Both the position numbers and the translations under genes were made by a program. From positions 2,880,001 through 2,944,000 of the forward strand of contig OZ245817.1 in the NCBI GenBank assembly GCA_965228475.1: a stretch of 64,000 nucleotides of DNA, written 5' to 3'. This DNA comes from Myxococcota bacterium. Its GTDB lineage: Bacteria; Myxococcota_A; UBA9160; JAFDDA01. This document shows, one piece after another, positions 47,819-63,838 of this stretch. The notes beneath the pieces are model-generated. The model had not been told where the DNA came from. It saw only the letters and a list, made by a program, of their open reading frames with translations, and did not search any database. Positions within the stretch are counted from its first letter, which is position 1. Every line of letters begins with the position of its first letter.

Positions 47819-48706
47819 TCAGCGCGGCGTCGCCATGATCGCGTCGATCAGCGTGATCAGCCGATGGATCGCGGGCCCGAGCGTCCAGACGAGGATTCCC
47901 GGCAGGAAGCCCGAGACCAGGGGAAACACGAGCTTCTCGGGCAGGGCTTCGGCGCGTGCGAGGGCGCGCTCGCGGGCCCGGCGCGCCAGGTCGTCCGCGA
48001 TGTTCCGCACGATCTCGACCAGACCGGCCCCGGCCTCCTCCGCCTGGATCCACGCCGAGACGAAGCTCCGGATCGCGTCGACTTCCGTCCGGGTGGCCTG
48101 CCGCCGCATCGCCGTCGAGCGGTTTTCGCCCGCGCGGATCTCGTTCTGGACCCGCGCGAACTCCCGAACGAGGGGCCGGTCCGGCGTGGCCGAGACGTAG
48201 CGTTCGAGCGCGGCTTCGAACCCCATCCCCGACTCGGCCAGCGTCGCCAGCGTCTCGAGGGCGGGCGGCAGGTCCCGCTCGAGGGAAGCCACGCGCTCGC
48301 GACGGGCGGCCCTCACGCGAAGCGCCGGCACCGAAGCGATGCCCAACGCGACGAGGACCGGCGCGAAGGCGACGAAGTAGGACAGCGCCGTCCCGAAGAC
48401 GGGGATCGTCCGGGCCTGCCACTGGAGCCCGGTCGCCATCGCACTCGCTCCCCAGGCCCAGGCGATCGCCACGCCCAGGAACAGGGCGATGCCCTGCCGA
48501 ACCGAGAAACGGCGGACGGCGTCCTCGCCCTCGTAGCCGGCCAGGGCGAGCCAGTGCGCGAGGCGCGAGCTCCGGGGCGTCGAGACATCCTTCTCCCAGA
48601 GCCGGGCTTCCGCCCCGCGGCTCCGCTCGGTCCACCACGCGAGGCCCGCGGCGCCGACGATCAGCAGCAGCCCGAACAGCAGGGTGAGGAAGTCCAGGGC
48701 CGACAT
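47819..48706 (-). CDS. tadC: Tad inner-membrane platform protein TadC (T2SS F family)
   Basis: LP.ALE.LA...ESGMGFEAAL, E.RAG..R..A, EKLVFPLV..FLP. Confidence 0.82.
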   Translation of the reverse strand: MSALDFLTLLFGLLLIVGAAGLAWWTERSRGAEARLWEKDVSTPRSSRLAHWLALAGYEGEDAVRRFSVRQGIALFLGVAIAWAWGASAMATGLQWQARTIPVFGTALSYFVAFAPVLVALGIASVPALRVRAARRERVASLERDLPPALETLATLAESGMGFEAALERYVSATPDRPLVREFARVQNEIRAGENRSTAMRRQATRTEVDAIRSFVSAWIQAEEAGAGLVEIVRNIADDLARRARERALARAEALPEKLVFPLVSGFLPGILVWTLGPAIHRLITLIDAIMATPR

Positions 48707-49557
48707 CAGACGGTGATCCTGGAGATGCGCCACATCCAGAGGAGTGAGAGCGCCTGCACGAGCAGGGTTCCGCCGACGAGCCCCTCCCCGACCCCGCTCG
48801 CCAGGAACGAAGCGATGCCGGGCGGATCGTTCAGCCAGACGACCACGGCGATCGCCAGGTTCGCGGCCATGAGCACGAGGACGGAGCCTCGGGTCGGCGC
48901 CGCCTGGGATTCGATGCGCCGCAGGACGTCGGCCCGGTCGCGTACCGAGCGCGAGACCACCGCGAGGCTCCGCGAGAGCTGGCCGCCGGCGTGCCACTGG
49001 ATCGCGAGGCAGAGCGCGAGCAAGCGGAACGATTCGAGGGGGACTTCCTGTGTCAGGCGAGCCGTGGCCTCGGAGGGGTTCTCTCCGGTGGCCAGGCGAC
49101 CCGTCATGTCGGAGAGCAGGCGGCGCAAGGGTTCGCGCGCGTCGCGTGCCGCTCGCTGGAACGCATCGAGCGGGCTGGCACCGGACCGGAGGGCCGAGGT
49201 GACGAGGTCGAGCGCGTCGGCCAGACCCTCTTCGAGTGCGAGCGCGGCCCGGTCGACGCGCGCGCGGTGGGCGATGAACGCGAGCGCCCCCACCACGGCG
49301 CCCAACCCCAGACCGACCACCACCTGAGCCAGGGCGACGACGGCGATGGCCCCGGCGCCGGCCCCGACGAGCAACCCGACCTGGATGCTGCGCTGACCGG
49401 CGAGCGAGCCGGCGACGGGTTCGGGCGAATCGGCGTCGTCGGGACGGCTGTGCAGCCGCTGCGCCGCCCGGGAGCGCTGCTGCCAGGCGCGGGCAGCCGC
49501 TCCCGAGACCGCCAGAACCCCCGCGAAGGTGAGTGCTGCGAGCCCTGCACTACTCAT
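48706..49557 (-). CDS. tadB: Tad inner-membrane platform protein TadB (T2SS F family)
   Basis: LADALDLVTSALRSG.S, GGQL..SL......VRDR; directly upstream of tadC. Confidence 0.82.
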   Translation of the reverse strand: MSSAGLAALTFAGVLAVSGAAARAWQQRSRAAQRLHSRPDDADSPEPVAGSLAGQRSIQVGLLVGAGAGAIAVVALAQVVVGLGLGAVVGALAFIAHRARVDRAALALEEGLADALDLVTSALRSGASPLDAFQRAARDAREPLRRLLSDMTGRLATGENPSEATARLTQEVPLESFRLLALCLAIQWHAGGQLSRSLAVVSRSVRDRADVLRRIESQAAPTRGSVLVLMAANLAIAVVVWLNDPPGIASFLASGVGEGLVGGTLLVQALSLLWMWRISRITV

Positions 49558-49668: not shown

Positions 49669-50451
49669 CTAGTCGCGCTTGCGGCCGAGCGCCGCGAGGC
49701 CCGCGAAGCCGGAGAGCAGCAGCAGCAGGCTGCCCGGCTCGGGCACGAGGTTGCTCTCGACCCAGCCCTCGGCGAGTTCGAGCGCCTCTTCGAGGTCCTC
49801 TTCGTTCGCCGGCGTGAGGGTGGCGAAGAGGATGAAGAGCGAGTTCGACGGGTCGACGAAGCCGTCCGCCTGGAACACGGCCTCGACCAGGTAGATGCCC
49901 TCGGTCGCGAAGTCGGGCGTGACCGTGGCATCGCCGAGCAGCGTGAAGTCGTGGTGCTCGTGGAGCAGACCGTTGGCCGCCGTCGTGCCGAGTTCGATCC
50001 CGGTCACGGCCGCCGAGCCGTCCAGCACGGACGTGCCGCCGAAGTGCGCGATCTCGAGGACCTCGCCGTCCGGAGTCGCGCCGAAGTCCACCGCGCCGAC
50101 GCCATCCCAGTACGAAAGGCTCCGGCCCTCGTAGCCCAGGATGATGTCGAGCTCGACGTCGGTGCTGCCGGGGATGTTGTCCGCGCCGAGCGGCAGCTGC
50201 AGGGGAGCCACCGTGTCGCTGAACGAGTTCCAGCCGGGCTCGTCGCCCGAGAAGGAGCCGTCGAGCTCCGGGTCGAAGAGCTCCCCTTCGAAGATGTTCG
50301 CATCGACGAACAAGAGATCGTCGAAGTCCATGCCTCCGACGACGAGCTCGCCGCCCTGCTGGTAGACGTTCGCATCGACGTGCTGGGCCTGTGCCGATTC
50401 CGTCCCAAGGAACAACAGCGAGGCCGCCAGAGCCAAATTCAAGATCCGCAT
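49669..50451 (-). CDS. PEP-CTERM surface protein with His-motif putative metal-binding domain
   Basis: Signal peptide ending AQA then QHVD; internal LSYWDG.GAV, HEHH, GIYLV; canonical VPEPGSLLLLLSGFAGLAALGRKR tail. Confidence 0.85.
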   Translation of the reverse strand: MRILNLALAASLLFLGTESAQAQHVDANVYQQGGELVVGGMDFDDLLFVDANIFEGELFDPELDGSFSGDEPGWNSFSDTVAPLQLPLGADNIPGSTDVELDIILGYEGRSLSYWDGVGAVDFGATPDGEVLEIAHFGGTSVLDGSAAVTGIELGTTAANGLLHEHHDFTLLGDATVTPDFATEGIYLVEAVFQADGFVDPSNSLFILFATLTPANEEDLEEALELAEGWVESNLVPEPGSLLLLLSGFAGLAALGRKRD

Positions 50452-50563: not shown

Positions 50564-51682
50564 TCAGGCGAGCAGCCGGCGCCTCCTGGCGGCGGCAAGC
50601 AGCGGCAGGAGGACCGCGATCTCCGTTCCGAGGCCGCAGCCCGAGCTCGCCTCGACGTCTCCGTCGGCGCTCGCGCACTGCGGGTCGTTCGGGAAGTCGA
50701 TCAGGCCGTCGTTGTCGTTGTCGATCCCGTCGGCGCACTGGAAGGCCTCGGAGGGATCGTTGAGTCCCTTGCAGCCCGGGTCGTCGGGGTGGTCCGCGAG
50801 GCCGTCGCCGTCGTTGTCGATCCCGTCGTCGCAGGCGAGCGCGAGGGAGTACTCGGATTCGTCCGAGGCGCCGTCGCAGCCCGGGTCGTCGAAGCCCAGG
50901 CCCAGGTTCCCACCGTCATGGTCGGCGCGGCCGTCGCCATCGTTGTCGTAGCCGTCCTGGCAATCCGGCACGTCGAGGTTGGCCTCGACCCACGCGACGG
51001 CGGTGTCCAGGGTCGACTGGAACTCGTTGTACGCGAAGACCATCCAGAAGCGCGGGGAAGGCGCGACTGCGTCCGCGGCGAGCACCGGGTCGATGGACGC
51101 CTCGAGGGCAACGAGGTAGATGCCGCTCGCTGCGCCGCCGGTCGGCCGCAGGTGGTAGTCGATGTGGCGGTGGATGCCTCCGGTGGAGGGCTCCGTCGCG
51201 ATCAGGAAACCGGAGACCGGTGCCGTTCCTCCGTCCGCGATGGCCAGGTTGGCGCCACGGGAAATCTCGACGGTCTCACTCCCTGGGACCGGCCCCCAGC
51301 TGACGGCGCCGTCGCCGTCCCAGTAGGAGAGGTTCCGCCCCGTCAGGGGCTCCACCACGATGTCGAAGTAGAGATCAGCGTCGTCCGGCAGGCCGACCAT
51401 CCCCGGCGGGGAGTCGTTCGAAGTGTGGCCCGGCGCGTCCGTCCACAGCCCGCCCTGGCCCGAGTTGAAGTTGAACGTGTCCGAGAAGACGCGGACGTCG
51501 GGAACGAGCTGCAAGAGGTCGAAATCGGTGGCGCCCGTCTTCACGTGGCCGTCATCGATCCCGTAGAGCATGTCGAGGTGCTGGGCGTTCGAGGGCCCTG
51601 CCGTGAAAGCGAACCCCGCCAGGATTGCGGCCCCAAGCTGGACCTTCGCGATCCGCAACCGATTCGACGCCCGGTTCGACAC
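50564..51682 (-). CDS. Surface protein paralogous to the PEP-CTERM protein, with three Cys/Asp repeats and a CGLG-TM-Arg tail
   Basis: GGAGGGAGG RBS before GTG 51682; signal ending SNA then QHLD; LSYWDGDGAV, HRH, GIYLV; tail SSGCGLGTEIAVLLPLLAAARRRR. Confidence 0.82.
   Translation of the reverse strand: MSNRASNRLRIAKVQLGAAILAGFAFTAGPSNAQHLDMLYGIDDGHVKTGATDFDLLQLVPDVRVFSDTFNFNSGQGGLWTDAPGHTSNDSPPGMVGLPDDADLYFDIVVEPLTGRNLSYWDGDGAVSWGPVPGSETVEISRGANLAIADGGTAPVSGFLIATEPSTGGIHRHIDYHLRPTGGAASGIYLVALEASIDPVLAADAVAPSPRFWMVFAYNEFQSTLDTAVAWVEANLDVPDCQDGYDNDGDGRADHDGGNLGLGFDDPGCDGASDESEYSLALACDDGIDNDGDGLADHPDDPGCKGLNDPSEAFQCADGIDNDNDGLIDFPNDPQCASADGDVEASSGCGLGTEIAVLLPLLAAARRRRLLA
50675..50962 (-). repeat. 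Three intragenic CxDGxDNDxDGxxD...DPxC repeats
   Basis: CQDGYDNDGDGRAD..DPGC, CDDGIDNDGDGLAD..DPGC, CADGIDNDNDGLID..DPQC; Asp spacing resembles Ca-binding loops. Confidence 0.85.
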
Positions 51683-51704
51683 CCAGTACCTCCCTCCGCG
51701 CTCG

Positions 51705-51722
51705 TGTGCGCACTTGTGCACA
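51705..51722. promoter_or_regulatory. Palindromic/tandem element in the divergent control region
   Basis: TGTGCGCA-ct-TGTGCACA, both an imperfect inverted repeat and a 10 bp-period direct repeat. Confidence 0.35.
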
Positions 51723-51739
51723 GGTCCGTGCGGTGAGGT

Positions 51740-51765
51740 AGTGCCGGCCGGCCCCGAAGGGTTCC
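51740..51765 (-). promoter_or_regulatory. Candidate ECF sigma promoter, copy 2
   Basis: GGAACC-N14-GGCACT on the minus strand upstream of the CGLG-anchored gene; both hexamers and the spacing are identical to copy 1. Confidence 0.6.
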
Positions 51766-51839
51766 CGTCGATCCCCGCTTTTCTCGTCAGAACGAGGCCC
51801 CCTAGACCGATCGGAACGCATCGAGTAGGGTCGGCGCTC

Positions 51840-52163
51840 ATGGGCCTCCGTCGAACCAGCACGTGGATCCTGATCGCGAGCTTCATTGCGTCCGTGCATC
51901 TGATGCCGGGCGTTCACGAGCTCTCGCACGACGGACATCCCGCGCACGCGGAAGCGAGTGACAACGCGGAGACCTCTGCCGCCGAGGCGGAGTGCGATTT
52001 CTGCGCGCTCTTGTCCGGTGCCCGGCTCGGACTCACGGGAGCCTCGAGCCACGCGGATCGCACCGTCCCTGCTCCGACCCGCCTCGAGGCTCTTCCGGAA
52101 AGCCCGCACTTCGCTGCGCGCTTCGATTCGCCCGCCTCGCCGAGAGCCCCGCCCGCCGCCTAG
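51840..52163 (+). CDS. DUF2946-like leader peptide (signal segment, His patch, CxxC, C-terminal RAPP)
   Basis: 107 aa: hydrophobic N-terminus, HELSHDGHPAH, CDFC, ...PRAPPAA-stop. Confidence 0.82.
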   Translation: MGLRRTSTWILIASFIASVHLMPGVHELSHDGHPAHAEASDNAETSAAEAECDFCALLSGARLGLTGASSHADRTVPAPTRLEALPESPHFAARFDSPASPRAPPAA

Positions 52164-52178
52164 TACCTGGGCTGTGGC

Positions 52179-52198
52179 AGGGACGCACCTGCGTCCCT
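52179..52198 (+). promoter_or_regulatory. Perfect inverted repeat between the RAPP ORF and the ECF gene
   Basis: AGGGACGCA-cc-TGCGTCCCT, beginning 15 nt after the RAPP ORF stop. Confidence 0.55.
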
Positions 52199-52231
52199 TG
52201 GTTCCGACTTCGAACCTGCGGGCGAACCGCC

Positions 52232-52837
52232 ATGAAAACATCGACCTGTCGAGACGGGGGCGCACTCCGCTCCCATTCAGGTTCCGTGCACCGCCGAGAG
52301 GCCGACCGCCTCGAGTCCGTGCGCGATCATCTCAGTGAACTCCGTTCCGTCGCCACGCGCGTGCTGGGCTGTCGGGACGCGGCCGAGGATGCCGTTCAGG
52401 AGGCCCTCGTCACGCTGTGGGGCCTGCGCGATTCGCCGCCGAACCAGCGCGCGTGGCTCGTCCGGACCGTCCTGCATCGGAGCCTTCACGCGCGCCGCAC
52501 CGCGATGCGCAGGCGGAAGTGGGAGACGCGCGCGGGCGAGGAGCTGACCCGTTGGTGCGCCCTCTGCGCCCCCGGCGACGAGCTCGAGCGGCGGGAGCTG
52601 AGGCGCACGCTCGACCGCGCCCTCGAGGGCCTCTCGGAGGAGCACCGCACGGTGCTCGCGCTGCGCGAGATCGAAGACCTCGACTACGAGGAGATCTCCC
52701 GCGCGCTGGAGGTCCCGGTCGGAACGGTGCGATCCCGGCTGAACCGGGCCCGGGCCGCCTTCCGGTCGCAGCTGCAGAGCCAGGCGTCGGCCCTGGGGCA
52801 CGAGGCGCCGCAACCCGCCCGCCAGGGGATGCGATGA
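52232..52837 (+). CDS. ECF sigma factor (start uncertain) with CxxC in the sigma2-sigma4 linker
   Basis: AAEDAVQEAL..LW, RAWL; R.VL.LRE.EDLDYEEIS.AL.VP.GTVRSRLNRAR; linker WCALCAP. Confidence 0.9.
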   Translation: MKTSTCRDGGALRSHSGSVHRREADRLESVRDHLSELRSVATRVLGCRDAAEDAVQEALVTLWGLRDSPPNQRAWLVRTVLHRSLHARRTAMRRRKWETRAGEELTRWCALCAPGDELERRELRRTLDRALEGLSEEHRTVLALREIEDLDYEEISRALEVPVGTVRSRLNRARAAFRSQLQSQASALGHEAPQPARQGMR

Positions 52838-54777
52838 GCTGCGCCGCACGCATGGCGGCGCTGATCCTGGCGCTCGGGCTGGTTCCCGGTGTCGCCGCCG
52901 CGGCCAAGGGCGACCGCTCGGTCCGCATCGGCACCCATGCTCGCGTGCTTCTCGAGCAGGCGGTGACGCGCGTCTCCGTGGCGGACCCGTCGATCGTCGA
53001 CGTCCAGATCCTGAACGCGCGGGAGCTCCTGGTGCTGGGGCGCCGCGTCGGCCAGACCAACGTGATCCTCTGGCTCGACGACGGCTCCGTCGACGACCGG
53101 CTCTGGACGGTCCACCGCGACCTCTCCTTGCTGAACTCCGTGCTGCGCGACATCCACCGCGGCGTGCGCGCCGAGAGCGCCGCCGATCGCGACGCGATCG
53201 TGCTGCGCGGCCGCGTGCCGAACGTCCGCTTCTCGCGCGCCGCCGAGGAGGCCGCGCTGCGCTTCTTCTCGGGCGGCGCCACGCAGACCGAGGGCGGGCT
53301 CGTCGTCCAGGTGCCCGGTGGCGGAGCGCCGGAGCCCTCGGGTGGGGCCTCGGCCCAGGAAGGCGAAGGGGCGGCCGAGCCGGCCGTCCGCGCGGCGACG
53401 AGCCGCCGAACCACCGGCCAGACCGTGCGCGTTCTCAACCTGATCCGCGTTCAGGAGCTCCCCGAGACCCTCGAGGAACGGATCCTCTCGGCCACCCGCC
53501 CGATCGGAGGCGAAGAGGTGCGGGTGCGCCGGATCGCCCGGGGCGACGCACCCGACGACCGTGCGGACAGCTTCATCCTGGAAGGACACGTCCAGAACCA
53601 GGTCACCCTCGTCCGCGTCCTGACCGTCGCCGCGCAGGTGCTCGGCGGCGGGGCCGGCACGACGGACATCCGCACGATTGCCGACGAGGCCGGTTCCCTG
53701 CGACAGGGCGGCGGCGGGGGCGGCAGCGGCGGAAACGTCGCCGCCGTGGTCTCGACCGCGGGCAGCCGCTCGGGAGGCGCCGGGGGGTCGAGCAGCGTGC
53801 GAACCAATCCGGCCCGGGCGCCCGCGCTGACCGCGGCCGGCGGCCGGATCCTCTCGTTCCTGGAAGTGCGCGACCTCCCGCAGGTCCGGATCGAGGCGCG
53901 CCTCTACGAGGTCAGCCGGGCGCGGCTCCGGGACTGGGATCCGAGTGCGAACCTGCTGCTCGGCGATTTCTCGCAGGGCGCGCTCCTGCCCTCTCCTCTC
54001 GCCGCCCTCTCCCAGGGCGCCGGAGCCGCGAGCGTGGGCACCGGGAGCTCGACCGTCCAGAACGTGCTCTCCCTGATCGGCGGCGGCCTCGCAAACAGCT
54101 TCCAGGTCCAGAGCGGCATCGTCGCACTCGACCTGCTCTTCTCCCTCCTCGAAGAGGAAGGGATCGCGCGCAGCCTCGCCACGCCGTCGCTCACGGTGCT
54201 CTCGGGCGAAACGGCGAACCTGAACGTCGGAGGCCAGATCCCGATCGCCACGACGATCGAGACCCAGACGAGCGCCGCCAGCGGCACGCTCTTCAGCTCC
54301 ACGGTCTTCGCCGACTTCGGCGTCAACCTGAGCGTGGTGCCCCGGGTGGGCGAGAACGACTTCGTGACCCTCGACGTCACGCCGAGCATCTCGGCGCCGG
54401 ACCTCACGTTGACCTCGAACATCTCGAACGCCACGGGCGCGACCCAGACGACGACCGCCTTCGAGACGCGCAGCCTCAGCACGAGCGCGCGCCTCCTCGA
54501 CGGCCACGCCCTGGTCCTCGCGGGGCTGCTCCAGCAGAACGCCTCCGAGGACGCGCGTTTCACCCCGGGGCTCCACCGCGTTCCGGGCCTCGGCTGGCTG
54601 GCACGCAGCCAGGGGCGCCAGCGGGACGACCTCGAACTGGTGATCGTGATCAGCCCGAACATCGTGCGCGACCCGGCCCCGCGGGTTGCGCTCTGGGAGT
54701 TCGCCTCGACGGCGGAGCTCTTGCGAGACGACCTACCGGCGATCCCGGCCCCGCGGCCGGCGCCGGTGATTCCCTGA
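52834..54777 (+). CDS. cpaC: Tad secretin RcpA/CpaC
   Basis: Signal peptide; VSVADPSIVDV..ELLVLG..VGQTNVILW; QV.IEAR.YEV, LA.PSL.VLSGETA...VGG.IP, FGV.L.V.P, VPGLGWL, ELVI.I.P.IV. Confidence 0.88.
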   Translation: MSCAARMAALILALGLVPGVAAAAKGDRSVRIGTHARVLLEQAVTRVSVADPSIVDVQILNARELLVLGRRVGQTNVILWLDDGSVDDRLWTVHRDLSLLNSVLRDIHRGVRAESAADRDAIVLRGRVPNVRFSRAAEEAALRFFSGGATQTEGGLVVQVPGGGAPEPSGGASAQEGEGAAEPAVRAATSRRTTGQTVRVLNLIRVQELPETLEERILSATRPIGGEEVRVRRIARGDAPDDRADSFILEGHVQNQVTLVRVLTVAAQVLGGGAGTTDIRTIADEAGSLRQGGGGGGSGGNVAAVVSTAGSRSGGAGGSSSVRTNPARAPALTAAGGRILSFLEVRDLPQVRIEARLYEVSRARLRDWDPSANLLLGDFSQGALLPSPLAALSQGAGAASVGTGSSTVQNVLSLIGGGLANSFQVQSGIVALDLLFSLLEEEGIARSLATPSLTVLSGETANLNVGGQIPIATTIETQTSAASGTLFSSTVFADFGVNLSVVPRVGENDFVTLDVTPSISAPDLTLTSNISNATGATQTTTAFETRSLSTSARLLDGHALVLAGLLQQNASEDARFTPGLHRVPGLGWLARSQGRQRDDLELVIVISPNIVRDPAPRVALWEFASTAELLRDDLPAIPAPRPAPVIP

Positions 54778-54829: not shown

Positions 54830-55246
54830 ATGCGATTGAAGAAGCGCGGACTGCGGGACGAGCGAGGTGCCGCCCTGGCCGAGTACGGACTGCTGCTCGC
54901 CGGCGTCGCGATGGTCTGCATGCTGGCCGTCTCGGTGCTCGGCACGAAGGTCGGCGGCCTGATCGGCTCGGTGGCGACGATGATCCCGGGAACCACCATC
55001 GACCTCGATGCCCCGGTGCTCGTGGGCACGCTGCTCGAGACCCAGGCCACGGACATCAACGGCGACCAGATCAAGGAGATCAACATGCCGCTCGACTCCG
55101 TGGTCGACCGCAACTCGGCCACCGTGCGCGAAGAGGGCCTCTCGCCTCGCCTCGGCCAGGGCATGGGACTCGACCCGCACGCCACCTCCCACGCGGTCCA
55201 GGTGGGATCGGGCCAGAACCCCTTCCACGCCGGCGGCGGGAACTAG
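54830..55246 (+). CDS. flp: Flp/type IV (Tad) pilin with long C-terminal extension
   Basis: Leader ending RDERG then AALAEYGLL (Glu5/Tyr6 Flp motif), hydrophobic helix; 138 aa; strong RBS. Confidence 0.8.
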   Translation: MRLKKRGLRDERGAALAEYGLLLAGVAMVCMLAVSVLGTKVGGLIGSVATMIPGTTIDLDAPVLVGTLLETQATDINGDQIKEINMPLDSVVDRNSATVREEGLSPRLGQGMGLDPHATSHAVQVGSGQNPFHAGGGN

Positions 55247-55265: not shown

Positions 55266-56228
55266 GTGGATCGGCGTCGACGCAGAGAAGGCGGGGGCGT
55301 GCTGCTCGAGTTCGCCCTCGTGATGGGCGTGCTCTGGATGCTGGTGGCCGGGACCATCGAGCTCGGTCGCATGGTCGCGGCCGGCCACCTCATCCAGGGC
55401 GCCGCCCGTTCCGTGGCGCGAAGCATGGCGCTCGAGCCAACGGGTGCGAACACGTCCTTCGCGATGGCGATCCAGAACTTCTTCGACCCCGACTACCTCG
55501 TGATCGACATGGCCGCGTGCAGGGCCTTGGACATCACACCCGAGCAGCTCGCTCGCGGTGACGAGGCCGAGGAGTTCGACGGACTCCCGCTCCTGAACCG
55601 CCTGCTCTTTCCGCTGATGATTCGGGAAGACCGGGACGTCGATGGCGAAGAACGCAGCTTCCTGCGCTATCCGGGGACGCTCGTTCGACACCTCTCCGCG
55701 CCGCCGGCCAAGCCCTGCGCCACCGCCTACACGGTGGCCGTCCCCGAGCTCCGCTCGGAAGGCGGCTCGACGCGGGTGTGTTGGCACCGGGTGGTCGAAG
55801 AGCTCGTGAGTGGCGGGACGGACGGGACTCGTTTCGCGCTGTCCTGTGCGGGCGAACCCTGCGGGATGGCCGGCGTCCAGGTTCGCTTCCCGTTCCAATC
55901 GGCCGCATTCCCCGCATGGCGGGAGACCGGAGAGATCCTCCCCGACGGCCGGCCGCAACAGCGCGTCGCCGCCTGGAACGAAGGCGCGCCCGGCGAGCCC
56001 ATCTCCGCCAGCGGAGGCAGCGAAGGCTGTTCGGATCTCTCCGGGAAGTTCGACAACACCGCGCGCGTCGGGATCCTCGGCATCGAGGACGGCCGCGTCG
56101 ACGCCTACGGCGGCCCGCTCGGCCTGGGCGCCCTCCGCGTCCTCCCCGAGATCGCCTCGGGGCCGAGCCGCGCCTATCGCAAGGTGCTCGCCGGGAGCGC
56201 CCTCTACCCCCGCGAAGGATTCCTCTGA
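55266..56228 (+). CDS. TadE-family pseudopilin with large Cys-containing domain
   Basis: RRRREGG then GVLLEFALV...IELGR...AAR..AR TadE motif. Confidence 0.78.
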   Translation: MDRRRRREGGGVLLEFALVMGVLWMLVAGTIELGRMVAAGHLIQGAARSVARSMALEPTGANTSFAMAIQNFFDPDYLVIDMAACRALDITPEQLARGDEAEEFDGLPLLNRLLFPLMIREDRDVDGEERSFLRYPGTLVRHLSAPPAKPCATAYTVAVPELRSEGGSTRVCWHRVVEELVSGGTDGTRFALSCAGEPCGMAGVQVRFPFQSAAFPAWRETGEILPDGRPQQRVAAWNEGAPGEPISASGGSEGCSDLSGKFDNTARVGILGIEDGRVDAYGGPLGLGALRVLPEIASGPSRAYRKVLAGSALYPREGFL

Positions 56229-57094
56229 TGCGACGACGATCGAGCACGTTTTCCGACTGGCCCTTCCGGCTCGGCCTCGTGGCGTTTGCCGCGCTCGGCG
56301 CCGCCCTCGTGTACGTCGTGGCCGAGCGTTCGAACGACGACTCCGATCGGCTGGCCGGCCCGCCGCCGGGGACCACCGCCGTCCCGGTCCTCGCCCGCCC
56401 GCTTCCCGCGTTCACCGCGATCGAGCTCGAGCATCTGATCGATCCGGCCACGGGCGGGTTCGCCGCGATCTACCTCCCGACGGATTCCCTCTTCGACTCC
56501 ACGCTCACGGAGCCCCAGGCCCTGCTCGGCCGCGTGCTGGCCAACGACAAGCGGGCCGGCCTCGTGTTCTCGGAGAACGACTTCATGCCTCGCGGCACGC
56601 GGCCCGGCCTGGTCGCCGGCATCCCGGCCGGGAAGCGCGCCGTTCGCCTCGAGGCGAGTCGCGTCTCGGGCCTGGTCGGTCTCCGCCGGGGCGATCGGCT
56701 CGATCTCATGGTGAGCGGCCGGAGCCGGAACGCCGCGGCGCGCCCGGGCCAGCTCCTCGGCCGCCGCAGCCGCGCCGTGGTCCAGAACGGCATGATCGTC
56801 GAGCCCGCGCGGGCGCGCCGGTCGGCGGCCGACGGCAAGATCATCGAGGAGGTCGTGATCGCGATCGATCCTTCGGAGGTCGCCGGCCTGACGGCCGCGC
56901 TCGACGACGGACTGCGCATCGACACCCTGCCCCGCTCCGGCCAGGGAGGCGCCACCCAGGAAGAGGACGCCTACGGCGGCCGCGCCCACGAGGAGATTGC
57001 CGAGATCGACCTCATCCGCGGAACGCGCCGCACCGTCGAGACCACCACCGGCGGGCCGCGCCCTCCGGCCGTCGCCAGCGGCCCTCCTCTCTGA
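56228..57094 (+). CDS. cpaB: CpaB/RcpC-like pilus assembly protein
   Basis: N-terminal TM, SAF-like VPVLARPLPAF, IPAGKRAV.L, GLRRGDRLDL. Confidence 0.78.
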   Translation: MRRRSSTFSDWPFRLGLVAFAALGAALVYVVAERSNDDSDRLAGPPPGTTAVPVLARPLPAFTAIELEHLIDPATGGFAAIYLPTDSLFDSTLTEPQALLGRVLANDKRAGLVFSENDFMPRGTRPGLVAGIPAGKRAVRLEASRVSGLVGLRRGDRLDLMVSGRSRNAAARPGQLLGRRSRAVVQNGMIVEPARARRSAADGKIIEEVVIAIDPSEVAGLTAALDDGLRIDTLPRSGQGGATQEEDAYGGRAHEEIAEIDLIRGTRRTVETTTGGPRPPAVASGPPL

Positions 57095-57097
57095 CCC

Positions 57098-58189
57098 ATG
57101 CTGGCCTGGTTCTCGCTCCTCCTGTTCGCCCTGATGGGCGTCTCGGCCCTCGCGCTCGACCTGGGCGTGGCGCGCCTGGCCCAGACGCGCCTCGAGACCG
57201 CGGCCGAGTTCGCGGCCCTCGGGCGCACCCACGGCATGACGGAGGCGGAGCTGCGCGCACTCGCCGGCGAGGTGCTGGCGGAAGGGGTCACGCCCGCGAG
57301 CCGGGTTCGCCTCGGCCCGATCGGCCCCCTCGACCCGGCCGACGCGGGCTGCCCGGGCAACCTGCCGGCGGAGGCCGGAACCCCCGCGGTCCTCGCGCGG
57401 CGCATCCCCCTGCTCTTCGGCCACGGCAGCATGGTGGCCTTCGCCTCCCCGACCGGCCTCACCGACATCCTCGCGATTCGGAACGATCCCACCATCGAAG
57501 ATCCGGCCGACCGCAACCCGACACCGGTCCTCCCCGATGCATCGCTTCCACCGGACGTCCTCGCCCTGCGCGAACAGGGCCTGTGCGTCGACGGTCGCGG
57601 CCAGGCGGAGCTCGTCCCGGCCCTCGCCGTCGCGGGCGTCACCCAGCGCACGCTGCCCGGCGGGCTGCGAGGGCTGGCGGTTGCCATCAACAGCGACCTG
57701 TGGCTCAGCCGAGAGGCCACCCTCGAGACGGAGTGCACCGCGGACCGCCAAGCAGGCCCGTGGTTCGAGGTCCAGGCAATTCCGGGCGGATGCGACTCGG
57801 GAGTCGAAGCATGTTCGATCCCCGTCGGAGACGAAGCCTTCCACATCGGGGCGACGGTGGAAGGCGATCCCCGCAACCTCGCAGCGGCCCCGGAACCGCT
57901 GGAACCCGACCTGCATCAGCGGGTCATCGCACCGCTCAGCCGCGGCGGGGTGACCGAGGGCTTCGTCGCGCTCTGTGCGCGTCTCAAGGACGCCCGGATC
58001 TACGTCTCACCTCGCTGGAACGACGCTCCGACCCGGTTCACCTCCTACACGGCCGAGGTCCGGCGCGATCCGATGGTTCTGAGCCGGCTGACCACCGATC
58101 CCACCGATCTCGAACCGCACCCGCTCGACGGCAACCTCCGCCCTCTCGTCCAATCCGCGCGCCTGACACTCCCGGAGGCCGGCTCGTGA
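57098..58189 (+). CDS. TadG-like protein
   Basis: ALALDLG......RLETAAEFAAL, matching the Tad domain pattern D.G....LQ.AAD.AAL. Confidence 0.68.
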   Translation: MLAWFSLLLFALMGVSALALDLGVARLAQTRLETAAEFAALGRTHGMTEAELRALAGEVLAEGVTPASRVRLGPIGPLDPADAGCPGNLPAEAGTPAVLARRIPLLFGHGSMVAFASPTGLTDILAIRNDPTIEDPADRNPTPVLPDASLPPDVLALREQGLCVDGRGQAELVPALAVAGVTQRTLPGGLRGLAVAINSDLWLSREATLETECTADRQAGPWFEVQAIPGGCDSGVEACSIPVGDEAFHIGATVEGDPRNLAAAPEPLEPDLHQRVIAPLSRGGVTEGFVALCARLKDARIYVSPRWNDAPTRFTSYTAEVRRDPMVLSRLTTDPTDLEPHPLDGNLRPLVQSARLTLPEAGS

Positions 58190-59367
58190 GTTCGGGGCGC
58201 ATCGAGATCCTCGTCGTCGGCACCGACGCCTCGCTGCTCGACGAGCTCGACCAGGCCGCGACCGGCACCGAGGAGGTCCAGCCCTCGATCCGCTTCGCCG
58301 AAGGCCCGCGCGACGCTCTCGCGACGGCGCGACGGCGGCGCGTGGACCTCGTCTGCATCGAACTCGGGAGCGATCCCAAGCCGGTGCGCGAACTCGCCGC
58401 AGAACTCCGCGCCATCGACCCGGGCGTGGCGCTCCTCGGGCTCCACGCGGGCGGCGAGGAGCACGCCGAGAGCCCGGTTCTCATCGAGGCGGTGCGCTCG
58501 CGTTTCGTCGACGTGCTGCGGCGCCCGATCTCCGGAACGGAGCTTCGCCCGATCCTGCGTGACCTCGGCGAGACGACGACCGAGCGACGCCGGGCCGAGG
58601 GCACCCTCGTGGCCTTCCACAGCACGAAGGGTGGCGTCGGCAAGTCGACCCTCGCGATCAACACCGCCTGCGCCCTCGCCGAGAGCCGGCCCGGCCGGGT
58701 GCTGCTCGTCGATGCCTCGCTCCAGCTCGGGGTCTGCGCGGCCGCACTCGATCTCGCCCCGGAGACGAGCCTCGCCGACGCCGCCCGCGAATGCGAACGG
58801 CTCGACGCCGGCCTGCTGCGCGGCCTGACCGCGCGGCACGAAAGCGGGCTCCACCTCCTGGCCGCGCCGCGGGATGCCGTCGAGGCCGCCGAGGTCGACG
58901 AAGCGGCACTCTCGCGCGTCCTCGGTACGGCCCGCCAGTGCTTCGACGTCGTGATCGTGGACACGCTGCCCATGGTCGACGAGCTGATGATCGCGATCCT
59001 CGATCAGGCCGAACGGATCTTCCTGGTGAACCAGGCCACGGTGCCCGACGTGATCGGCGCGAGCCGCCTGCTCGACGTCCTGCGCCGCCTCGAGATCGAC
59101 CCGGAACGCTGGCGCATCGTGGTGAACCGCACGATGCCGCGCTTCCCGGGCGCCCTCGGCACCCGCGAGATCGAAGCCCGCCTCGACATGCCCGTCGGCT
59201 ACGAGGTGCCCTTCGACCGCCGCGTGCTGAGCGCCCTCAACCTCGGCGAACCCTACGTCCTGCGCGCGAGCCAGCGCCGCGGCTGGGGCCGCGCGGTGGC
59301 GGGAATCGTCGCGGACGTCGAGCGCGCCCTCGAGATGGTGCGCTCCGAGCGGGGCGCGGACCGATGA
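58186..59367 (+). CDS. cpaE: CpaE/TadZ (receiver-like domain plus MinD/ParA ATPase)
   Basis: KGGVGKST deviant Walker A, VLLVD..LQ.G, SGLHLLAAP, FDVVIVD, A.N.G.P. Confidence 0.88.
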   Translation: MSSGRIEILVVGTDASLLDELDQAATGTEEVQPSIRFAEGPRDALATARRRRVDLVCIELGSDPKPVRELAAELRAIDPGVALLGLHAGGEEHAESPVLIEAVRSRFVDVLRRPISGTELRPILRDLGETTTERRRAEGTLVAFHSTKGGVGKSTLAINTACALAESRPGRVLLVDASLQLGVCAAALDLAPETSLADAARECERLDAGLLRGLTARHESGLHLLAAPRDAVEAAEVDEAALSRVLGTARQCFDVVIVDTLPMVDELMIAILDQAERIFLVNQATVPDVIGASRLLDVLRRLEIDPERWRIVVNRTMPRFPGALGTREIEARLDMPVGYEVPFDRRVLSALNLGEPYVLRASQRRGWGRAVAGIVADVERALEMVRSERGADR

Positions 59368-59383
59368 GCAGACGGAGGATGCC

Positions 59384-60778
59384 GTGACGGGCGACCCGCG
59401 AGAAGAGAGCGCGCGCAGCCGCCTCACCCGCGCGCGCCGGGACGTCGTCTCGACGCGCGTCTCGAGCGCCGCGGCCCGCCGCCGGGCCGCTCCGGAGCCC
59501 CCCGCCGCCAACGCGGCCGCGAGCCTGCGGGCCTCCCTGCACGCGCGCCTCCTCGACGAGCTCGCGGAACGCAACCTCCTCCACGCCGACGACGAGGCCA
59601 TCCGGACCGCGGCGCGCGAGCTGATCGAGCGCGCGCGGGCCGAGGGCGACCTCCCGGTGAATCACGAAGAGGAGCGGGATCTCGTCCGAAGCCTCACGGA
59701 AGAAGCCATCGGGCTCGGACCGCTCGCGCCCTTCGTCTCCGACCCCGCCGTCACGGACATCCTCGTGAACGGGCCGCACAAGGTCTGGGTCGAGCGCTTC
59801 GGCCGGCTCGAGCCCGTCCACGCGCCGTTCCAGGACGAGGCGCACCTCCTCCGGATCATCGAGCGGATCGCGGGCCGCGTCGGGCGGCGGATCGACGCCG
59901 CCTCCCCGATGGTGGATCTCCGCCTCCCCGATGGAAGCCGCGTCCACGCGACGCTTCCGCCGGTGACCCCCGACGGCCCGACGCTCTCGATCCGCCGCTT
60001 CGGCGCGCGGCGCCTCGAGGCCGCCGATCTCGTCAAGACGGGGAGCTTCTCGCCGACGATGTCCGACGCCCTCGAGGCCTTCGTGCTCGGCCGGCGCAAC
60101 ATCCTCATCTCGGGCGGCACCGGGGCGGGCAAGTCGACCCTGCTCGGCGTCCTCGCCGCGCACATCCCGGCCTCGGAGCGGGTCATCACCATCGAGGACA
60201 CGCTCGAGCTCCAGCTCGACCACCCGCACTGGGTGCGCATGGAGTCGCGCCCGGCCAACGTCGAAGGCCGCGGCGAGCTCACCGCGCGCGACCTCGTCCG
60301 CAACAGCCTGCGGATGCGTCCGGACCGCGTGATCGTCGGCGAGGTTCGCGGCGCCGAAGCGCTCGACATGCTCCAGGCCATGAACACGGGCCACGAGGGA
60401 AGTCTCGGGACGATCCACGCCAACTCGCCGCGCGACGCGCTCGCGCGGCTCGAAACGATGGTGCTGATGGCCGGGATGGACCTGCCCTCGCGCGCGATCC
60501 GCGAGCAGATGGTCTCCGCGATCGACCTGATCGTCCACGTGAGCCGGGACGAGGACGGCGTCCGCCGGGTCGGGTCGATCTGCGAGGTCGTGGGGCTCGA
60601 GGGCACCGTCCCTCAGCTTCAGGACCTCTTCGTCTTCCGGCGCAGCGGCCACCGCGAAGGCCGCGTCCTCGGGCGACACACCGCCAGCGGAATCGTTCCC
60701 CGTTTCGGGGACGAGATCCGCCGCCGCGGCATCGCACTTCCGAACGAATGGTTCCAACCCTCCGAGGTTTCCTCATGA
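59384..60778 (+). CDS. cpaF: CpaF/TadA pilus assembly ATPase
   Basis: GLGPL, DILVNG, PMVD.RLPDGSRV, SGGTGAGKST, TIEDTLEL, LRMRPDR.IVGEVRG.EA, MNTGHEGS.GTIHANS. Confidence 0.95.
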   Translation: MTGDPREESARSRLTRARRDVVSTRVSSAAARRRAAPEPPAANAAASLRASLHARLLDELAERNLLHADDEAIRTAARELIERARAEGDLPVNHEEERDLVRSLTEEAIGLGPLAPFVSDPAVTDILVNGPHKVWVERFGRLEPVHAPFQDEAHLLRIIERIAGRVGRRIDAASPMVDLRLPDGSRVHATLPPVTPDGPTLSIRRFGARRLEAADLVKTGSFSPTMSDALEAFVLGRRNILISGGTGAGKSTLLGVLAAHIPASERVITIEDTLELQLDHPHWVRMESRPANVEGRGELTARDLVRNSLRMRPDRVIVGEVRGAEALDMLQAMNTGHEGSLGTIHANSPRDALARLETMVLMAGMDLPSRAIREQMVSAIDLIVHVSRDEDGVRRVGSICEVVGLEGTVPQLQDLFVFRRSGHREGRVLGRHTASGIVPRFGDEIRRRGIALPNEWFQPSEVSS

Positions 60779-61491
60779 GCTTCTCCACGCCGCGCCGACT
60801 GCTCGCGCTCGCCCTGCCCCTCGGCCTGCTCGTCGCGGGCGGCTGCGCCCGGACGCCGGGCCCGCCTTCGGACCCCAACGTGCGTCTCTCCCAAATCATG
60901 GAGGCCTGGCACGACCAGCGCGCCGCCGGCGTGACGTGCCAGGACGGCTACGAGCCCGGGCGCCCGGTGGTCGACTGCCGGCGGCTGATGAAGGCCCTCG
61001 AGGGGCTCGCCCTCGAGTTCCCGCGCCACCCCGGCGTCCTGTTCGCGGCGGCCACGCTGGCGCGCGAGGAAGGCGCGCCCGAGAAAGCGCAGGGCTACCT
61101 CGCCGCCCTGTTCACGGTGCGCCCCACGCACCCCGCCGCCGCGATCCTGCGCGCACGGATTGCAATGGACCAGGGCAATCTCCCCCAGGCCGAGCGCACC
61201 CTGAGCCACCAGATCCTGCTGGCACCGGACCACGCGGGCCTGCGGGAGGCGTTCGCCTCCGTCGCGTACCTGAAGGGCGACTGGAAGGCATCGGAAGAGC
61301 GCCTGCGGGCGGCCGAGCAGCTCGGCGCTCCGGATTGGCGCGTGGCCTACCACCGCGGCCTCATCGCCGAGGCGCGGGGCCAGCTCGACGAAGCGGCCGC
61401 GCACTACCGGCGCTCGCTCGACGCCTCGCCGGGGTTCGAGCGCGCGCAGATGCGGCTCGCGGGGCTCGCCGTCCGGCCGCGCGTGGACTAG
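60775..61491 (+). CDS. TPR lipoprotein, TadD/pilotin-like
   Basis: Lipobox AGGC, several TPR-like helical repeats, last gene of the Tad arm, ATGA overlap. Confidence 0.72.
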   Translation: MSFSTPRRLLALALPLGLLVAGGCARTPGPPSDPNVRLSQIMEAWHDQRAAGVTCQDGYEPGRPVVDCRRLMKALEGLALEFPRHPGVLFAAATLAREEGAPEKAQGYLAALFTVRPTHPAAAILRARIAMDQGNLPQAERTLSHQILLAPDHAGLREAFASVAYLKGDWKASEERLRAAEQLGAPDWRVAYHRGLIAEARGQLDEAAAHYRRSLDASPGFERAQMRLAGLAVRPRVD

Positions 61492-61977: not shown

Positions 61978-62865
61978 ATGGCCACCGCAGCGCACCCGAC
62001 CGACGGAATCGACGTCCAGCGCCTCACGGGCTCTCTCGGGGCGGAGGTCCGGGGGATCGACCTGCGCAGCGCAGGTGCCGCCGAGGCCGAGACCATCCTC
62101 GAGCTCGTTGCCCAGCACCTGGTCCTGTTCTTCCCCGACCAGCACCTGACGCCCGACGAGCACATCGCCTTCGGCCGGCTGTTCGGGAAGCTCGAGGGTC
62201 ACCCGAACCTCTCGCTCGATGCCGAGCGCCCGGAGTTCTTCGAGCTGCGCGCCGAAGGCGGATCCGGGGCGATCGCCGACGAGTGGCACAGCGACCTCAC
62301 CTGCCAGGCCGAGCCCTCGATCTTCGCGATCCTGCACATGAAGAAGTGCCCGCCCTTCGGCGGCGACACGCTCTGGGCCAACATGTACAAGGCCTACGAA
62401 GCGCTCTCCCCGCCGATGAAGGACCTCTGCGAGAGCCTCACGGCGATGCACGACGCGAGCCCCCACTACACGCCGGAGCGTCGCGCCGTCCACCCCGTCG
62501 TTCGCGTGCACCCCGTGACCGGCCGCCGCTCGCTGTTCGTGAACGAACACTTCACCCGGCGCATCGTCGAGCTGAGTCACCCCGAGAGCGAAGCGCTGCT
62601 GCGCTTCCTCACCGGTTGGGCCACGAACGACCGTTTCACCGTCCGCTACCGCTGGAGCGAGGGCACGATCGCCATGTGGGACAACCGGTGCACGCAGCAC
62701 CACGTGCTCGACGACTTCGAGGGCGAGCGGGTCATCCAGCGCGTCACCGTCATGGGCGACCGGCCCGAGGCCGCCACGCCGCCGCGCTACGAGCCCTTCG
62801 GCGGAAGCTTCAGCGCCGCCAGCTGGCGCGACAAGCCGCTCAAGGACTTCCTGCGCAAGGGCTGA
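61978..62865 (+). CDS. TauD/TfdA family Fe(II)/2-oxoglutarate dioxygenase
   Basis: LGAEVRGIDL, WHSD (HxD), GGDTLWAN, HPVVRVHP.TGR, WDNRCTQH, R...R. Confidence 0.92.
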   Translation: MATAAHPTDGIDVQRLTGSLGAEVRGIDLRSAGAAEAETILELVAQHLVLFFPDQHLTPDEHIAFGRLFGKLEGHPNLSLDAERPEFFELRAEGGSGAIADEWHSDLTCQAEPSIFAILHMKKCPPFGGDTLWANMYKAYEALSPPMKDLCESLTAMHDASPHYTPERRAVHPVVRVHPVTGRRSLFVNEHFTRRIVELSHPESEALLRFLTGWATNDRFTVRYRWSEGTIAMWDNRCTQHHVLDDFEGERVIQRVTVMGDRPEAATPPRYEPFGGSFSAASWRDKPLKDFLRKG

Positions 62866-62926
62866 CCCTCCGACGGCAGCTATGCTCCCCTGCCCGCCGC
62901 ACGCCGGCGGAGCAGGAGGAGCGGAC

Positions 62927-63838
62927 ATGGCCGACCGGACGGTCTCGGAGATCTTCGACCCCACGCGCTGGGAGGCCGTCCCCGGCTTCGACTTCGAGGA
63001 CATCACCTACCACCGTGCCGTCGACCAGGGCACGGTTCGCATCGCCTTCGACCGCCCCGAGGTACGGAACGCCTTCCGCCCGCGCACCGTCGACGAGCTC
63101 GACCGCGCCCTCGACCACGCGCGGATGACGACCGACGTCGGCTGCGTCCTGTTGACCGGGAACGGCCCCTCGCCCAAGGACGGCGTCTGGGCCTTCTGCA
63201 GCGGCGGCGACCAGCGCATCCGCGGCCGGGACGGCTACAAGTACGCCGAGGGCGAGACGGCCGAGACGATCGAGCCCGGCCGGGCGGGCCGCCTCCACAT
63301 CCTCGAGGTCCAGCGCCTGATCCGCTTCATGCCGAAGGTCGTGATCGCCGTGGTGCCGGGCTTCGCCGTCGGCGGCGGCCACAGCCTCCACGTCACCTGC
63401 GACCTCACCCTCGCGAGCGCCGAGCACGCCGTCTTCAAGCAGACGGACACGGACGTCGCGAGCTTCGACGGGGGCTTCGGTTCCGCCTATCTCGCCAAGC
63501 AGATCGGCCAGAAGTTCGCCCGGGAGATCTTCTTCCTCGGCCAGGGCTACTCCGCCGAGCAAGCGCACCACATGGGGATGGTGAACCGCGTCGTCCCCCA
63601 CGCCGAGCTCGAACGCGTCGCCCTCGAGTGGGCCCGCGAGATCAACACCAAGAGCCCGACGGCCCAGCGCATGGCCAAGTTCGCGATGAACCTCGTCGAC
63701 GACGGCCTCGTCGGCCAGCAGGTCTTCGCGGGCGAGGCCACCCGGCTGGCCTACATGACGGACGAGGCCGAGGAAGGGCGCGACGCCTTCCTCGAGAAGC
63801 GGGATCGGGACTTCTCGAAGTTCCCCTGGCACTTCTGA
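62927..63838 (+). CDS. menB: 1,4-dihydroxy-2-naphthoyl-CoA synthase
   Basis: FDRPEVRNAFRP.T, AFCSGGDQRIRG, RLHILEVQRLIR.MPK, VGGGHSLHVTCDLT, SFDGGFGS, EGRDAFLEKR. Confidence 0.95.
   Translation: MADRTVSEIFDPTRWEAVPGFDFEDITYHRAVDQGTVRIAFDRPEVRNAFRPRTVDELDRALDHARMTTDVGCVLLTGNGPSPKDGVWAFCSGGDQRIRGRDGYKYAEGETAETIEPGRAGRLHILEVQRLIRFMPKVVIAVVPGFAVGGGHSLHVTCDLTLASAEHAVFKQTDTDVASFDGGFGSAYLAKQIGQKFAREIFFLGQGYSAEQAHHMGMVNRVVPHAELERVALEWAREINTKSPTAQRMAKFAMNLVDDGLVGQQVFAGEATRLAYMTDEAEEGRDAFLEKRDRDFSKFPWHF

Follow-up and report, generated by a model that had tools for sequence, protein, structure and literature searches.

We examined a window of 64,000 nucleotides from a Myxococcota bacterium (contig OZ245817.1 of assembly GCA_965228475.1, positions 2,880,001 to 2,944,000) in which a short open reading frame (ORF) of the DUF2946 family lies directly upstream of a gene for an extracytoplasmic function (ECF) sigma factor. 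We propose, at a probability of roughly 0.6, that this leader peptide stalls its ribosome under low zinc and lets the sigma factor be made, and that the sigma factor in turn switches on a zinc-starvation regulon. Gating of the sigma factor by the leader is in our judgement highly probable, and zinc shortage is likely to be the signal. Coordinates refer to the window unless the genome analysed here (G000, one contig of 5.0 Mb, 96% complete, 70% GC) or another locus is named.

The leader peptide and its sigma factor

An earlier note on this stretch, made from the letters alone, had described a 107-residue peptide with a hydrophobic N-terminus, a CDFC motif and a RAPP motif two residues from the stop, and each of these was found where it had placed them. 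The CDFC occupies residues 52-55 and the RAPP residues 102-105, with TAG two residues later. Residues 8-22 are hydrophobic (mean Kyte-Doolittle value 1.81 over the 15-mer) and make up the single such segment in the peptide, resembling an export signal, while histidines stand at positions 20, 26, 30, 33 and 36. The family assignment made in the same note held when the Pfam hidden Markov model (HMM) was run, the peptide matching DUF2946 (PF11162) at 26.2 bits against a gathering cut-off of 23.7 as the sole match over the cut-off in the genome. The distance from CxxC to RAPP is 46 residues, as compared with 45 in CruR, where it is constant to one or two residues across the family (PMC9426467), which upholds the reading of the ORF as a CruR-like leader. 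Among eight orthologous leaders scanned with the same model one scored over the cut-off, three gave weaker matches and four gave none. In an alignment of 26 leaders (mean column identity 27%) C52, C55, R102, P104 and P105 were invariant, and H26 and A103 were kept in at least 90%.

The position of the leader ahead of a sigma factor, to which the earlier note had drawn attention, is conserved. A profile search of 193 genomes of the order recovered one ECF orthologue each in 27, G000 included, and in a 401-genome sample of the phylum the matches were confined to this order. Twenty-five of the 27 had a hydrophobic, His-bearing leader with CxxC..R[AS]PP directly upstream (24 RAPP, 1 RSPP), and the CxxC-to-R spacing was 44-48 in all 25. 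The other two loci were a contig that ends 106 nt upstream of the gene and G045, considered below. By comparison, 71 unrelated ECF loci (L036-L106; a few of these have less than 600 nt upstream, and L035 was excluded as a member of the ECF family) yielded four RxPP frames attributable to chance, of which none had the CxxC spacing. In Planctomycetota the ECF factor was present in 21 of 401 genomes, with a His-rich leader at 17 of the 21 (9 RAPP/RGPP, 1 RAPS, 7 xSPP/NSPT). The family as a whole comprised 178 clusters at 50% identity (E up to 1e-30), and a protein of the cultured Paludisphaera rhizosphaerae belongs to it; the tree of the ECF factors has one outgroup row and a weak backbone, and we claim no direction of transfer. 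The accompanying Tad genes occur in two gene orders, and some genomes carry leader and ECF gene without them, the leader-ECF link being kept throughout.

Leaders of the same type were also observed at L214:9079-9450 and L225:363-662 (both - strand), where they head a gene for a His-bearing exported protein, followed in L214 by DUF3299 and ATP-binding cassette (ABC) genes; such leaders therefore appear to gate non-sigma operons in the order as well. A leader subtype (L284, L286, L287, L288, L292, L296, L304, L136) has HxxCxxH near its start and an LAPKxSPP-type end instead of RAPP. This subtype precedes the same ECF family, three scanned members gave no DUF2946 match, and its end is a candidate new arrest motif. 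In database protein P0027 an RGPP leader continues in frame into an ECF sigma factor with no stop between them, which reflects either natural read-through or an assembly error.

The linker between regions 2 and 4 of the sigma factor carries a CxxC (C109, C112), which may add post-translational control; no cysteine follows residue 112, and His82 and His86 are conserved. In NCBIfam the superfamily model alone was over its cut-off among the 25 matches listed. The stop of the gene overlaps the secretin start (ATGA). No anti-sigma gene was recognised adjacent to or after the ECF gene in the loci examined, where the next recognised gene encodes a secretin, TadB or MerC or is an unrelated gene on the opposite strand, which leaves the leader plausibly acting as the gate in place of an anti-sigma factor.

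Upstream of the leader, a TAnnnT hexamer resembling a -10 element (51826-51831) overlaps a weak copy of the promoter motif described below; no full sigma-70 consensus was found in this region, and the mRNA could possibly be leaderless. We also looked within the spacer between the two genes (52164-52231) for a separate promoter, which the earlier note had named as an observation that would speak against gating, and none was predicted, neither a sigma-70 consensus nor a copy of the GGAAC motif being present. The three tandem hairpins predicted for the spacer were predicted in the closest orthologue (L112) too. The perfect 9-bp inverted repeat noted earlier is present at 52179-52198; such a repeat arises in 0.34% of 5000 shuffles of the spacer and is also seen in 26 of 539 co-oriented 50-100 nt spacers of G000. 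The hairpin is real and its role as a switch only putative, and no stall-dependent opening of the ECF start is predicted in G000; the hairpin lacks a U-tract, and no terminator was called at this site. The remark that the ECF gene has no obvious ribosome-binding site likewise stood in part: pairing of its start with the anti-Shine-Dalgarno sequence is weak in G000 (-2.9 kcal/mol) and weak in the closest orthologue, and this is not an assembly error because a contig from another public run is identical across 51412-52453. The weakness is nonetheless peculiar to the lineage, with a clear Shine-Dalgarno (SD) site of -5.5 kcal/mol or stronger at 23 of 28 loci, where starts were chosen partly by that strength.

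Predicted promoter, regulon and zinc context

Comparison of divergent regions yielded the motif GGAAC-N16-GC[AG]C. Across 31 loci (425 kb), GGAAC..xC[AG]CT was observed 34 times at the 16-nt spacer versus 5-13 times at spacers of 10-23, and within intergenic DNA 23 times versus 0-7. With a scoring matrix built without the window's three sites, the two strong sites in the window (22.0 and 21.9 bits) were among the three highest-scoring in the 5-Mb genome; the remaining one, which is tied, falls within a coding region. All 17 of 17 PEP-CTERM genes have the motif upstream (10 of 10 when training genes are left aside), as do 14 of 19 pilin genes (8 of 13 on the same basis), and it stands before none of 54 TadE, CpaB, CpaE and tetratricopeptide repeat (TPR) genes. 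L116, L118, L133 and L029 have a copy ahead of the leader-ECF unit as well, and the window has a weak one there (14.2 bits), which suggests positive feedback on the unit. From co-location we infer that the motif is the promoter of this sigma factor. A secretin promoter, predicted where the gene order is inverted, was rejected, since the motif reached at least 13 bits at only 1 of 25 secretin genes. A Planctomycetota locus with the ECF and Tad genes (L034/L285) has no leader and no linker CxxC, yet carries the motif before the pilin gene.

The precedents cited in the earlier note, CruR and CutF, would have led one to expect copper genes as targets. Here the next gene encodes the ECF factor and the neighbours are Tad and zinc-limitation genes: across loci we found ZigA (626 bits, cut-off 600), ZnuA/ZnuB-type, CobW_C, DUF3299, MerC, dihydroorotase, TonB receptor, DUF1826 and DUF4198 genes. 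No copper ATPase, multicopper oxidase or PCuAC was found among the protein clusters, partly HMM-named, that are common to at least two of the 31 loci. COG0523/ZigA, ZnuABC, C-minus ribosomal paralogues and PyrC2 are typical targets of the zinc repressor Zur (PMC11672702). CobW_C was present in 23 of 26 other ECF-bearing versus 7 of 29 ECF-lacking genomes (22 versus 3 at E<1e-15; kin are not independent). When the matrix was trained on Tad and PEP-CTERM sites only, 13 of the 26 COG0523 genes with upstream DNA in ECF-bearing genomes were preceded by a site of at least 14 bits, and no such site was found in 30 control stretches or before the 5 COG0523 genes that could be scored in ECF-lacking genomes; this test used 30 of 72 CobW_C hits as loci, and several of the misses are internal operon genes.

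One such operon lies in G000 (G000:C1:2951152-2954522, L263:7152-10522), 7 kb beyond the window end and 19 kb from the ECF gene. Its predicted ECF promoter (15.4 bits) heads genes for a CobW_C protein, without a GTPase N-terminus in Pfam, a flavoprotein, a methyltransferase and a ribosomal protein L28 lacking CxxC; an L28 copy with CxxC is encoded elsewhere. A weaker motif (15.8 bits) faces the gene divergent from this operon. S14, L31 and L33 are present in G000 as single Cys-poor copies only (G000:C1:159435-160002, 1403451-1403591), S14 and L31 forming a two-gene unit. Being single, these copies are uninformative on the regulon; they suggest a standing zinc economy. A TonB-dependent receptor and a TonB-like protein are encoded at G000:C1:2961237-2965244, together with what are presumably a BlaI/MecI-like regulator and an M56-like gene, and a related receptor lies near the ECF gene in L214 and L222. 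We also observed a small His/Cys-rich protein (L025:13621-13950 and L280:69-401), with no Pfam or NCBIfam match; its gene is oriented divergently to the leader in one genome and, in another that lacks the ECF factor, adjoins a Fur-family and a COG0523 gene.

The single Fur-family (PF01475) match in G000 scored 97-111 bits with iron Fur models and 49 bits with Zur, none over cut-off, and no Zur-like repressor was found in this one-contig, 96% complete genome. One ECF-lacking genome has a Fur-family gene adjoining a COG0523 gene. Mutual exclusion of Zur and the ECF factor across the order was considered and dropped, as second Fur-family genes were mostly PerR-like by neighbourhood in both groups (all 10 hits examined in ECF-bearing genomes, one unresolved, and 15 of 23 in ECF-lacking genomes).

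Within the window (Table 1) the surface-protein and TadB/TadC genes are on the - strand, divergent from the leader. The Tad/Flp pilus locus comprises secretin, Flp pilin, TadE/G, CpaB, CpaE, CpaF, TadB, TadC and TPR lipoprotein genes; no prepilin peptidase gene was recognised in it. The order of the TadE-to-TPR lipoprotein genes is conserved, and a pilin homologue is present in 19 of the 31 loci. The His-rich peptide had no Pfam match. It is followed by a gene for a TauD-family dioxygenase and a second gene, which we take to be MenB-like (61978-63838, + strand); neither gene was observed next to the module in other loci. The PEP-CTERM proteins fell into no specific NCBIfam family and gave Atlas matches below 0.9. 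The best structural match, to adhesin lectin domains (Z 6.9, root-mean-square deviation 3.5 over 134 residues), is in the common-fold range. The motif H-X2-9-H-F/Y-H of the zinc-scavenging exoprotein ZepA/All3515 (PMC10957091) is absent from the PEP-CTERM alignment, the comparison being by motif.

Table 1. Features of the leader-sigma module and the adjoining Tad locus, in window coordinates.
Feature	Position	Strand	Basis or remarks
TadB and TadC (two T2SSF proteins)	47819..49557	-	
PEP-CTERM surface protein, conserved His, predicted beta-sandwich	49669..50451	-	no clear solved relative
Predicted ECF promoter GGAAC-N16-GCACT, 22.0 bits, best score in genome	50525..50551	-	motif matrix
Exported His-motif surface protein, acidic disulfide repeats, C-terminal sorting tail	50564..51658	-	start codon uncertain
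Predicted ECF promoter GGAAC-N16-GCACT, 21.9 bits, before divergent arm	51739..51765	-	motif matrix
Weak copy of predicted ECF promoter motif, 14.2 bits, ending at leader ATG	51813..51839	+	motif matrix
DUF2946 leader ORF, 107 aa	51840..52163	+	hydrophobic N-terminus, His cluster, CxxC 51993-52004, RAPP 52143-52154
Spacer, 68 nt, three predicted tandem hairpins (52179-52198, 52200-52216, 52218-52230)	52164..52231	+	folding
ECF sigma factor, 201 aa, sigma regions 2 and 4	52232..52837	+	Pfam
RcpA/CpaC-type secretin	52834..54777	+	Pfam Secretin and T2SS-T3SS_pil_N over cut-off
Flp-like pilin	54830..55246	+	Pfam Flp_Fap E 6.9e-5, under cut-off
TadE-like, CpaB/RcpC-like, TadG-like, CpaE-like, CpaF/TadA ATPase and TPR lipoprotein genes	55299..61491	+	Pfam; RcpC, Tad under cut-off
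Exported His-rich peptide, 30 His in 101 aa	61579..61884	+	homologue in L026

Proposed mechanism and alternatives

In the mechanism we propose, zinc shortage would cause the ribosome to stall at the RAPP of the leader. If the leader works as CruR does, metal bound by the nascent CxxC, with the His cluster, would release the stall, so that metal would turn the operon off; this sign (on without metal) is suggested by CruR and by the targets. Stalling would permit synthesis of the sigma factor and hence transcription from GGAAC-N16-GCAC promoters, including those upstream of the leader-sigma unit that would provide positive feedback. The targets would be Tad pilin, PEP-CTERM and COG0523/ZigA genes and in G000 also the operon of the zinc-free L28 paralogue.

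The stall could act on the sigma gene in two ways. In about half of the orthologues the RAPP codons are CUCC-rich and are predicted to pair with the sigma Shine-Dalgarno unless a stalled ribosome covers them. At 19 of 28 loci a CUCC arises because the Ala codon and the first Pro codon of RAPP both have T in third position; the rate expected from these leaders is 24%. Predicted duplexes between a ribosome footprint and the ECF start of the same locus are more stable than those in cross pairs (-17.7 versus -15.0 kcal/mol; 0 of 20000 permutations), and when the RNA under and before the stalled ribosome is removed the predicted cost of opening the ECF start drops by more than 1 kcal at 14 of 28 loci and rises at 2. 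Natural codons mask the start more than synonymous recodings do at 12 loci and less at 3. All p-values are overstated, related genomes not being independent, and these folding models support SecM-like unmasking of the sigma SD in about half of the family. In G000 a duplex between GCGGGCG at 52218-52224 (-14 to -8) and the Pro-Pro-Ala codons at 52150-52156 is possible, but in the predictions it gives way to a local hairpin; the 9-bp hairpin or the Pro codons as a switch of the ribosome-binding site were rejected for this genome, as the folding varies with the stretch chosen and no net opening results. Because no opening is predicted, Rho is present in G000 and C exceeds G around RAPP (at 28 of 28 loci, partly forced by the Pro codons), CruR-type attenuation appears the likelier route there, the stall protecting the transcript from Rho termination.

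Several observations weigh against the proposal that a zinc-sensing leader gates this sigma factor. Stalling brings no predicted opening of the ECF start in G000 (8.9 versus 9.5 kcal/mol) or in L112 (10.6 versus 10.6), and the codon-recoding test reached only p=0.03. A leader is absent before the ECF gene in 1 of 27 order members and in 4 of 21 Planctomycetota; the one in the order is G045, where a CxxC..RGPP ORF on the opposite strand heads a divergent DUF3299/ABC operon. The linker CxxC is present in 27 of 27 order members and may be a second sensor. G000 carries 11 ECF-like matches, and the motif is tied to this sigma factor by co-location alone. The site before its CobW_C operon ranks 16 of 39, below several coding-region sites, and no ZnuA match was found in G000. 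The sign reported for CutF is opposite to that of CruR, and a DUF2946 gene heads a zinc efflux operon in Caulobacter in the table of PMC4176598. An unclassified Fur-family gene lies beside a gene that we take to be CbiM-like in two ECF-bearing genomes, a Fur-family gene adjoins the leader in three Planctomycetota loci, and four Planctomycetota loci are followed by a ZIP-ArsP permease whose best NCBIfam match (one scanned) is an efflux family.

Some of these points bear on the identity of the signal. The leader might gate by stalling in response to copper, nickel, cobalt, an excess of metal in the manner of CutF, or the state of the nascent chain as to export and disulfides. The characterised members of DUF2946 sense copper and do so with opposing signs, and His-rich CutF-like clusters precede nickel and cobalt genes (PMC9973294); the leader N-terminus is hydrophobic and many targets are exported, and the neighbours MerC and ZIP-ArsP are ambiguous in direction. 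We consider such an input unlikely given that the copper genes looked for are missing from the shared clusters while ZigA, ZnuA/B and CxxC-less L28 are typical of Zur regulons. It is less probable still that sensing falls mainly to the linker CxxC of the sigma factor, with the leader only trimming expression. The conserved CxxC, His82 and His86 fit such a role, some family members are leaderless, and CorE and CorE2 require a linker CxC and have no anti-sigma factor (PMC8999054, PMC6851896). However, the present factor has no C-terminal Cys-rich domain, CorE-type factors respond to metal excess, and across the wider family just 39 of the 129 members that could be scored have the linker CxxC, with leaders persisting before members without it.

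That the leader product binds the sigma factor in trans, as a true anti-sigma or accessory protein, we regard as very improbable. The peptide does have histidines and a CxxC and there is no other adjacent candidate, but conservation is limited to the CxxC, the RAPP and the distance between them, a pattern more in keeping with an effect on the ribosome than with a binding surface, and the N-terminus is like an export signal. Zinc-binding anti-sigma (ZAS) proteins carry HxxxCxxC in a cytoplasmic domain, whereas the window leader has no histidine four residues ahead of C52. CopL and CutF, as published, do not act in trans. Equally little weight falls to the reading of the ORF as a bystander or chance frame, with the ECF gene served by its own promoter in the spacer. 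Frames with RAPP or RGPP near a stop are indeed common in this GC-rich genome (505 cases in six-frame translation, 22 with CxxC), and the spacer hairpin is of a common kind. By inspection, however, only one of the 22 combines a hydrophobic start with the spacing, namely this leader, and among 31 ECF-like genes a copy of the motif was present in the 330 nt upstream for just 1, that of leaderless G045. The retention of the leader before 25 of 27 orthologues already largely refutes the bystander reading.

If the zinc-gated leader is correct, a metal-sensing arrest peptide would stand atop a regulon, where the characterised DUF2946 leaders control one copper operon each; an ECF factor would gain its input without an anti-sigma factor; the zinc-starvation response would have a route independent of Zur; and Tad pili would be tied to zinc supply. 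The module is small and portable, comprising a 107-aa leader, a 68-nt spacer, a 201-aa sigma factor and a 27-nt promoter, and its host is uncultured. A broader picture, which we hold only tentatively and at somewhat less than even odds, would make the nascent peptide the master zinc sensor, with the DUF2946 leader and a self-amplifying ECF factor replacing Zur and the Tad/Flp machine displaying or delivering His-bearing zinc-scavenging surface proteins. The Fur-family genes seen in ECF-bearing genomes and beside leaders indicate that replacement of Zur is not general.

Comparison with known systems

Each element of the module has a precedent. What appears to be new is how they are combined, along with the predicted regulon, its promoter and the absence of a detectable Zur from G000, none of which we found in print; the combination of leader, sigma factor and zinc regulon was absent from the literature searched, where most subscription journals fell outside. 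DUF2946, CobW, Flp and secretin were likewise absent from the searched part of the PMC7826278 supplement, and no sigma-gene neighbours are named in the accessible text or supplements of the CruR (PMC9426467) and CutF (PMC9973294) surveys.

CruR (Bp2923 of Bordetella pertussis) is of the same Pfam family, is the first gene of its operon and has a CxxC about 45 residues before a C-terminal RAPP; its mechanism (PMC9426467) has the on-without-metal logic predicted here. It differs in being followed by a TonB-dependent copper transporter rather than an ECF sigma factor with zinc-limitation and Tad targets, in its longer spacer (162 nt versus 68) and in not having the His cluster. CutF of Rhodobacter capsulatus (PMC9973294, bioRxiv 10.1101/2025.02.05.636593) is also a DUF2946-type leader, and stall-dependent unmasking of the SD of the next gene is a likeness predicted for about half of the orthologues and not for G000. 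In contrast to the leader described here it has CxxxC and a proline run, stalls with copper present and controls a copper oxidase.

The earlier note had presented an arrest peptide before a sigma factor as a departure from known leaders, and this is not unprecedented. CruR and seven RAPP/RGPP proteins of Streptomyces lividans arrest translation in vitro, and two of the latter, SLIV_33595 and SLIV_33605, with four transmembrane segments, are encoded upstream of ECF genes (PMC12992588). The arrangement is the same and arrest has been shown for theirs, but they belong to a different protein family and have no signal or regulon assigned, while the leader here combines a single hydrophobic segment with a putative CxxC/His sensor, and a regulon is predicted for it. 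The table of the same paper includes RAPP ORFs before zinc-regulated TonB receptors, and its searched part has no row for 'sigma'.

Among sigma factors, CorE and CorE2 of Myxococcus xanthus (ECF44/ECF238) resemble the present one in the lack of an anti-sigma factor, the cysteines between regions 2 and 4, the metal context and the phylum label. The linker motif here is CxxC and not CxC, there is no Cys-rich tail, a leader stands in front, and the predicted signal is shortage and not excess; without a linker CxC and a Cys-rich tail the factor is therefore not a CorE member. Metal-starvation ECF factors have been reviewed for iron, where they are under Fur and anti-sigma control (PMC6851896). Finally, Zur regulons (PMC11672702) contain the same classes of target genes, and differ in that control here is predicted to be positive, through a sigma factor instead of by repression, with no Zur-like gene found in G000, and in that Tad pilus and PEP-CTERM genes are core members of the predicted regulon.

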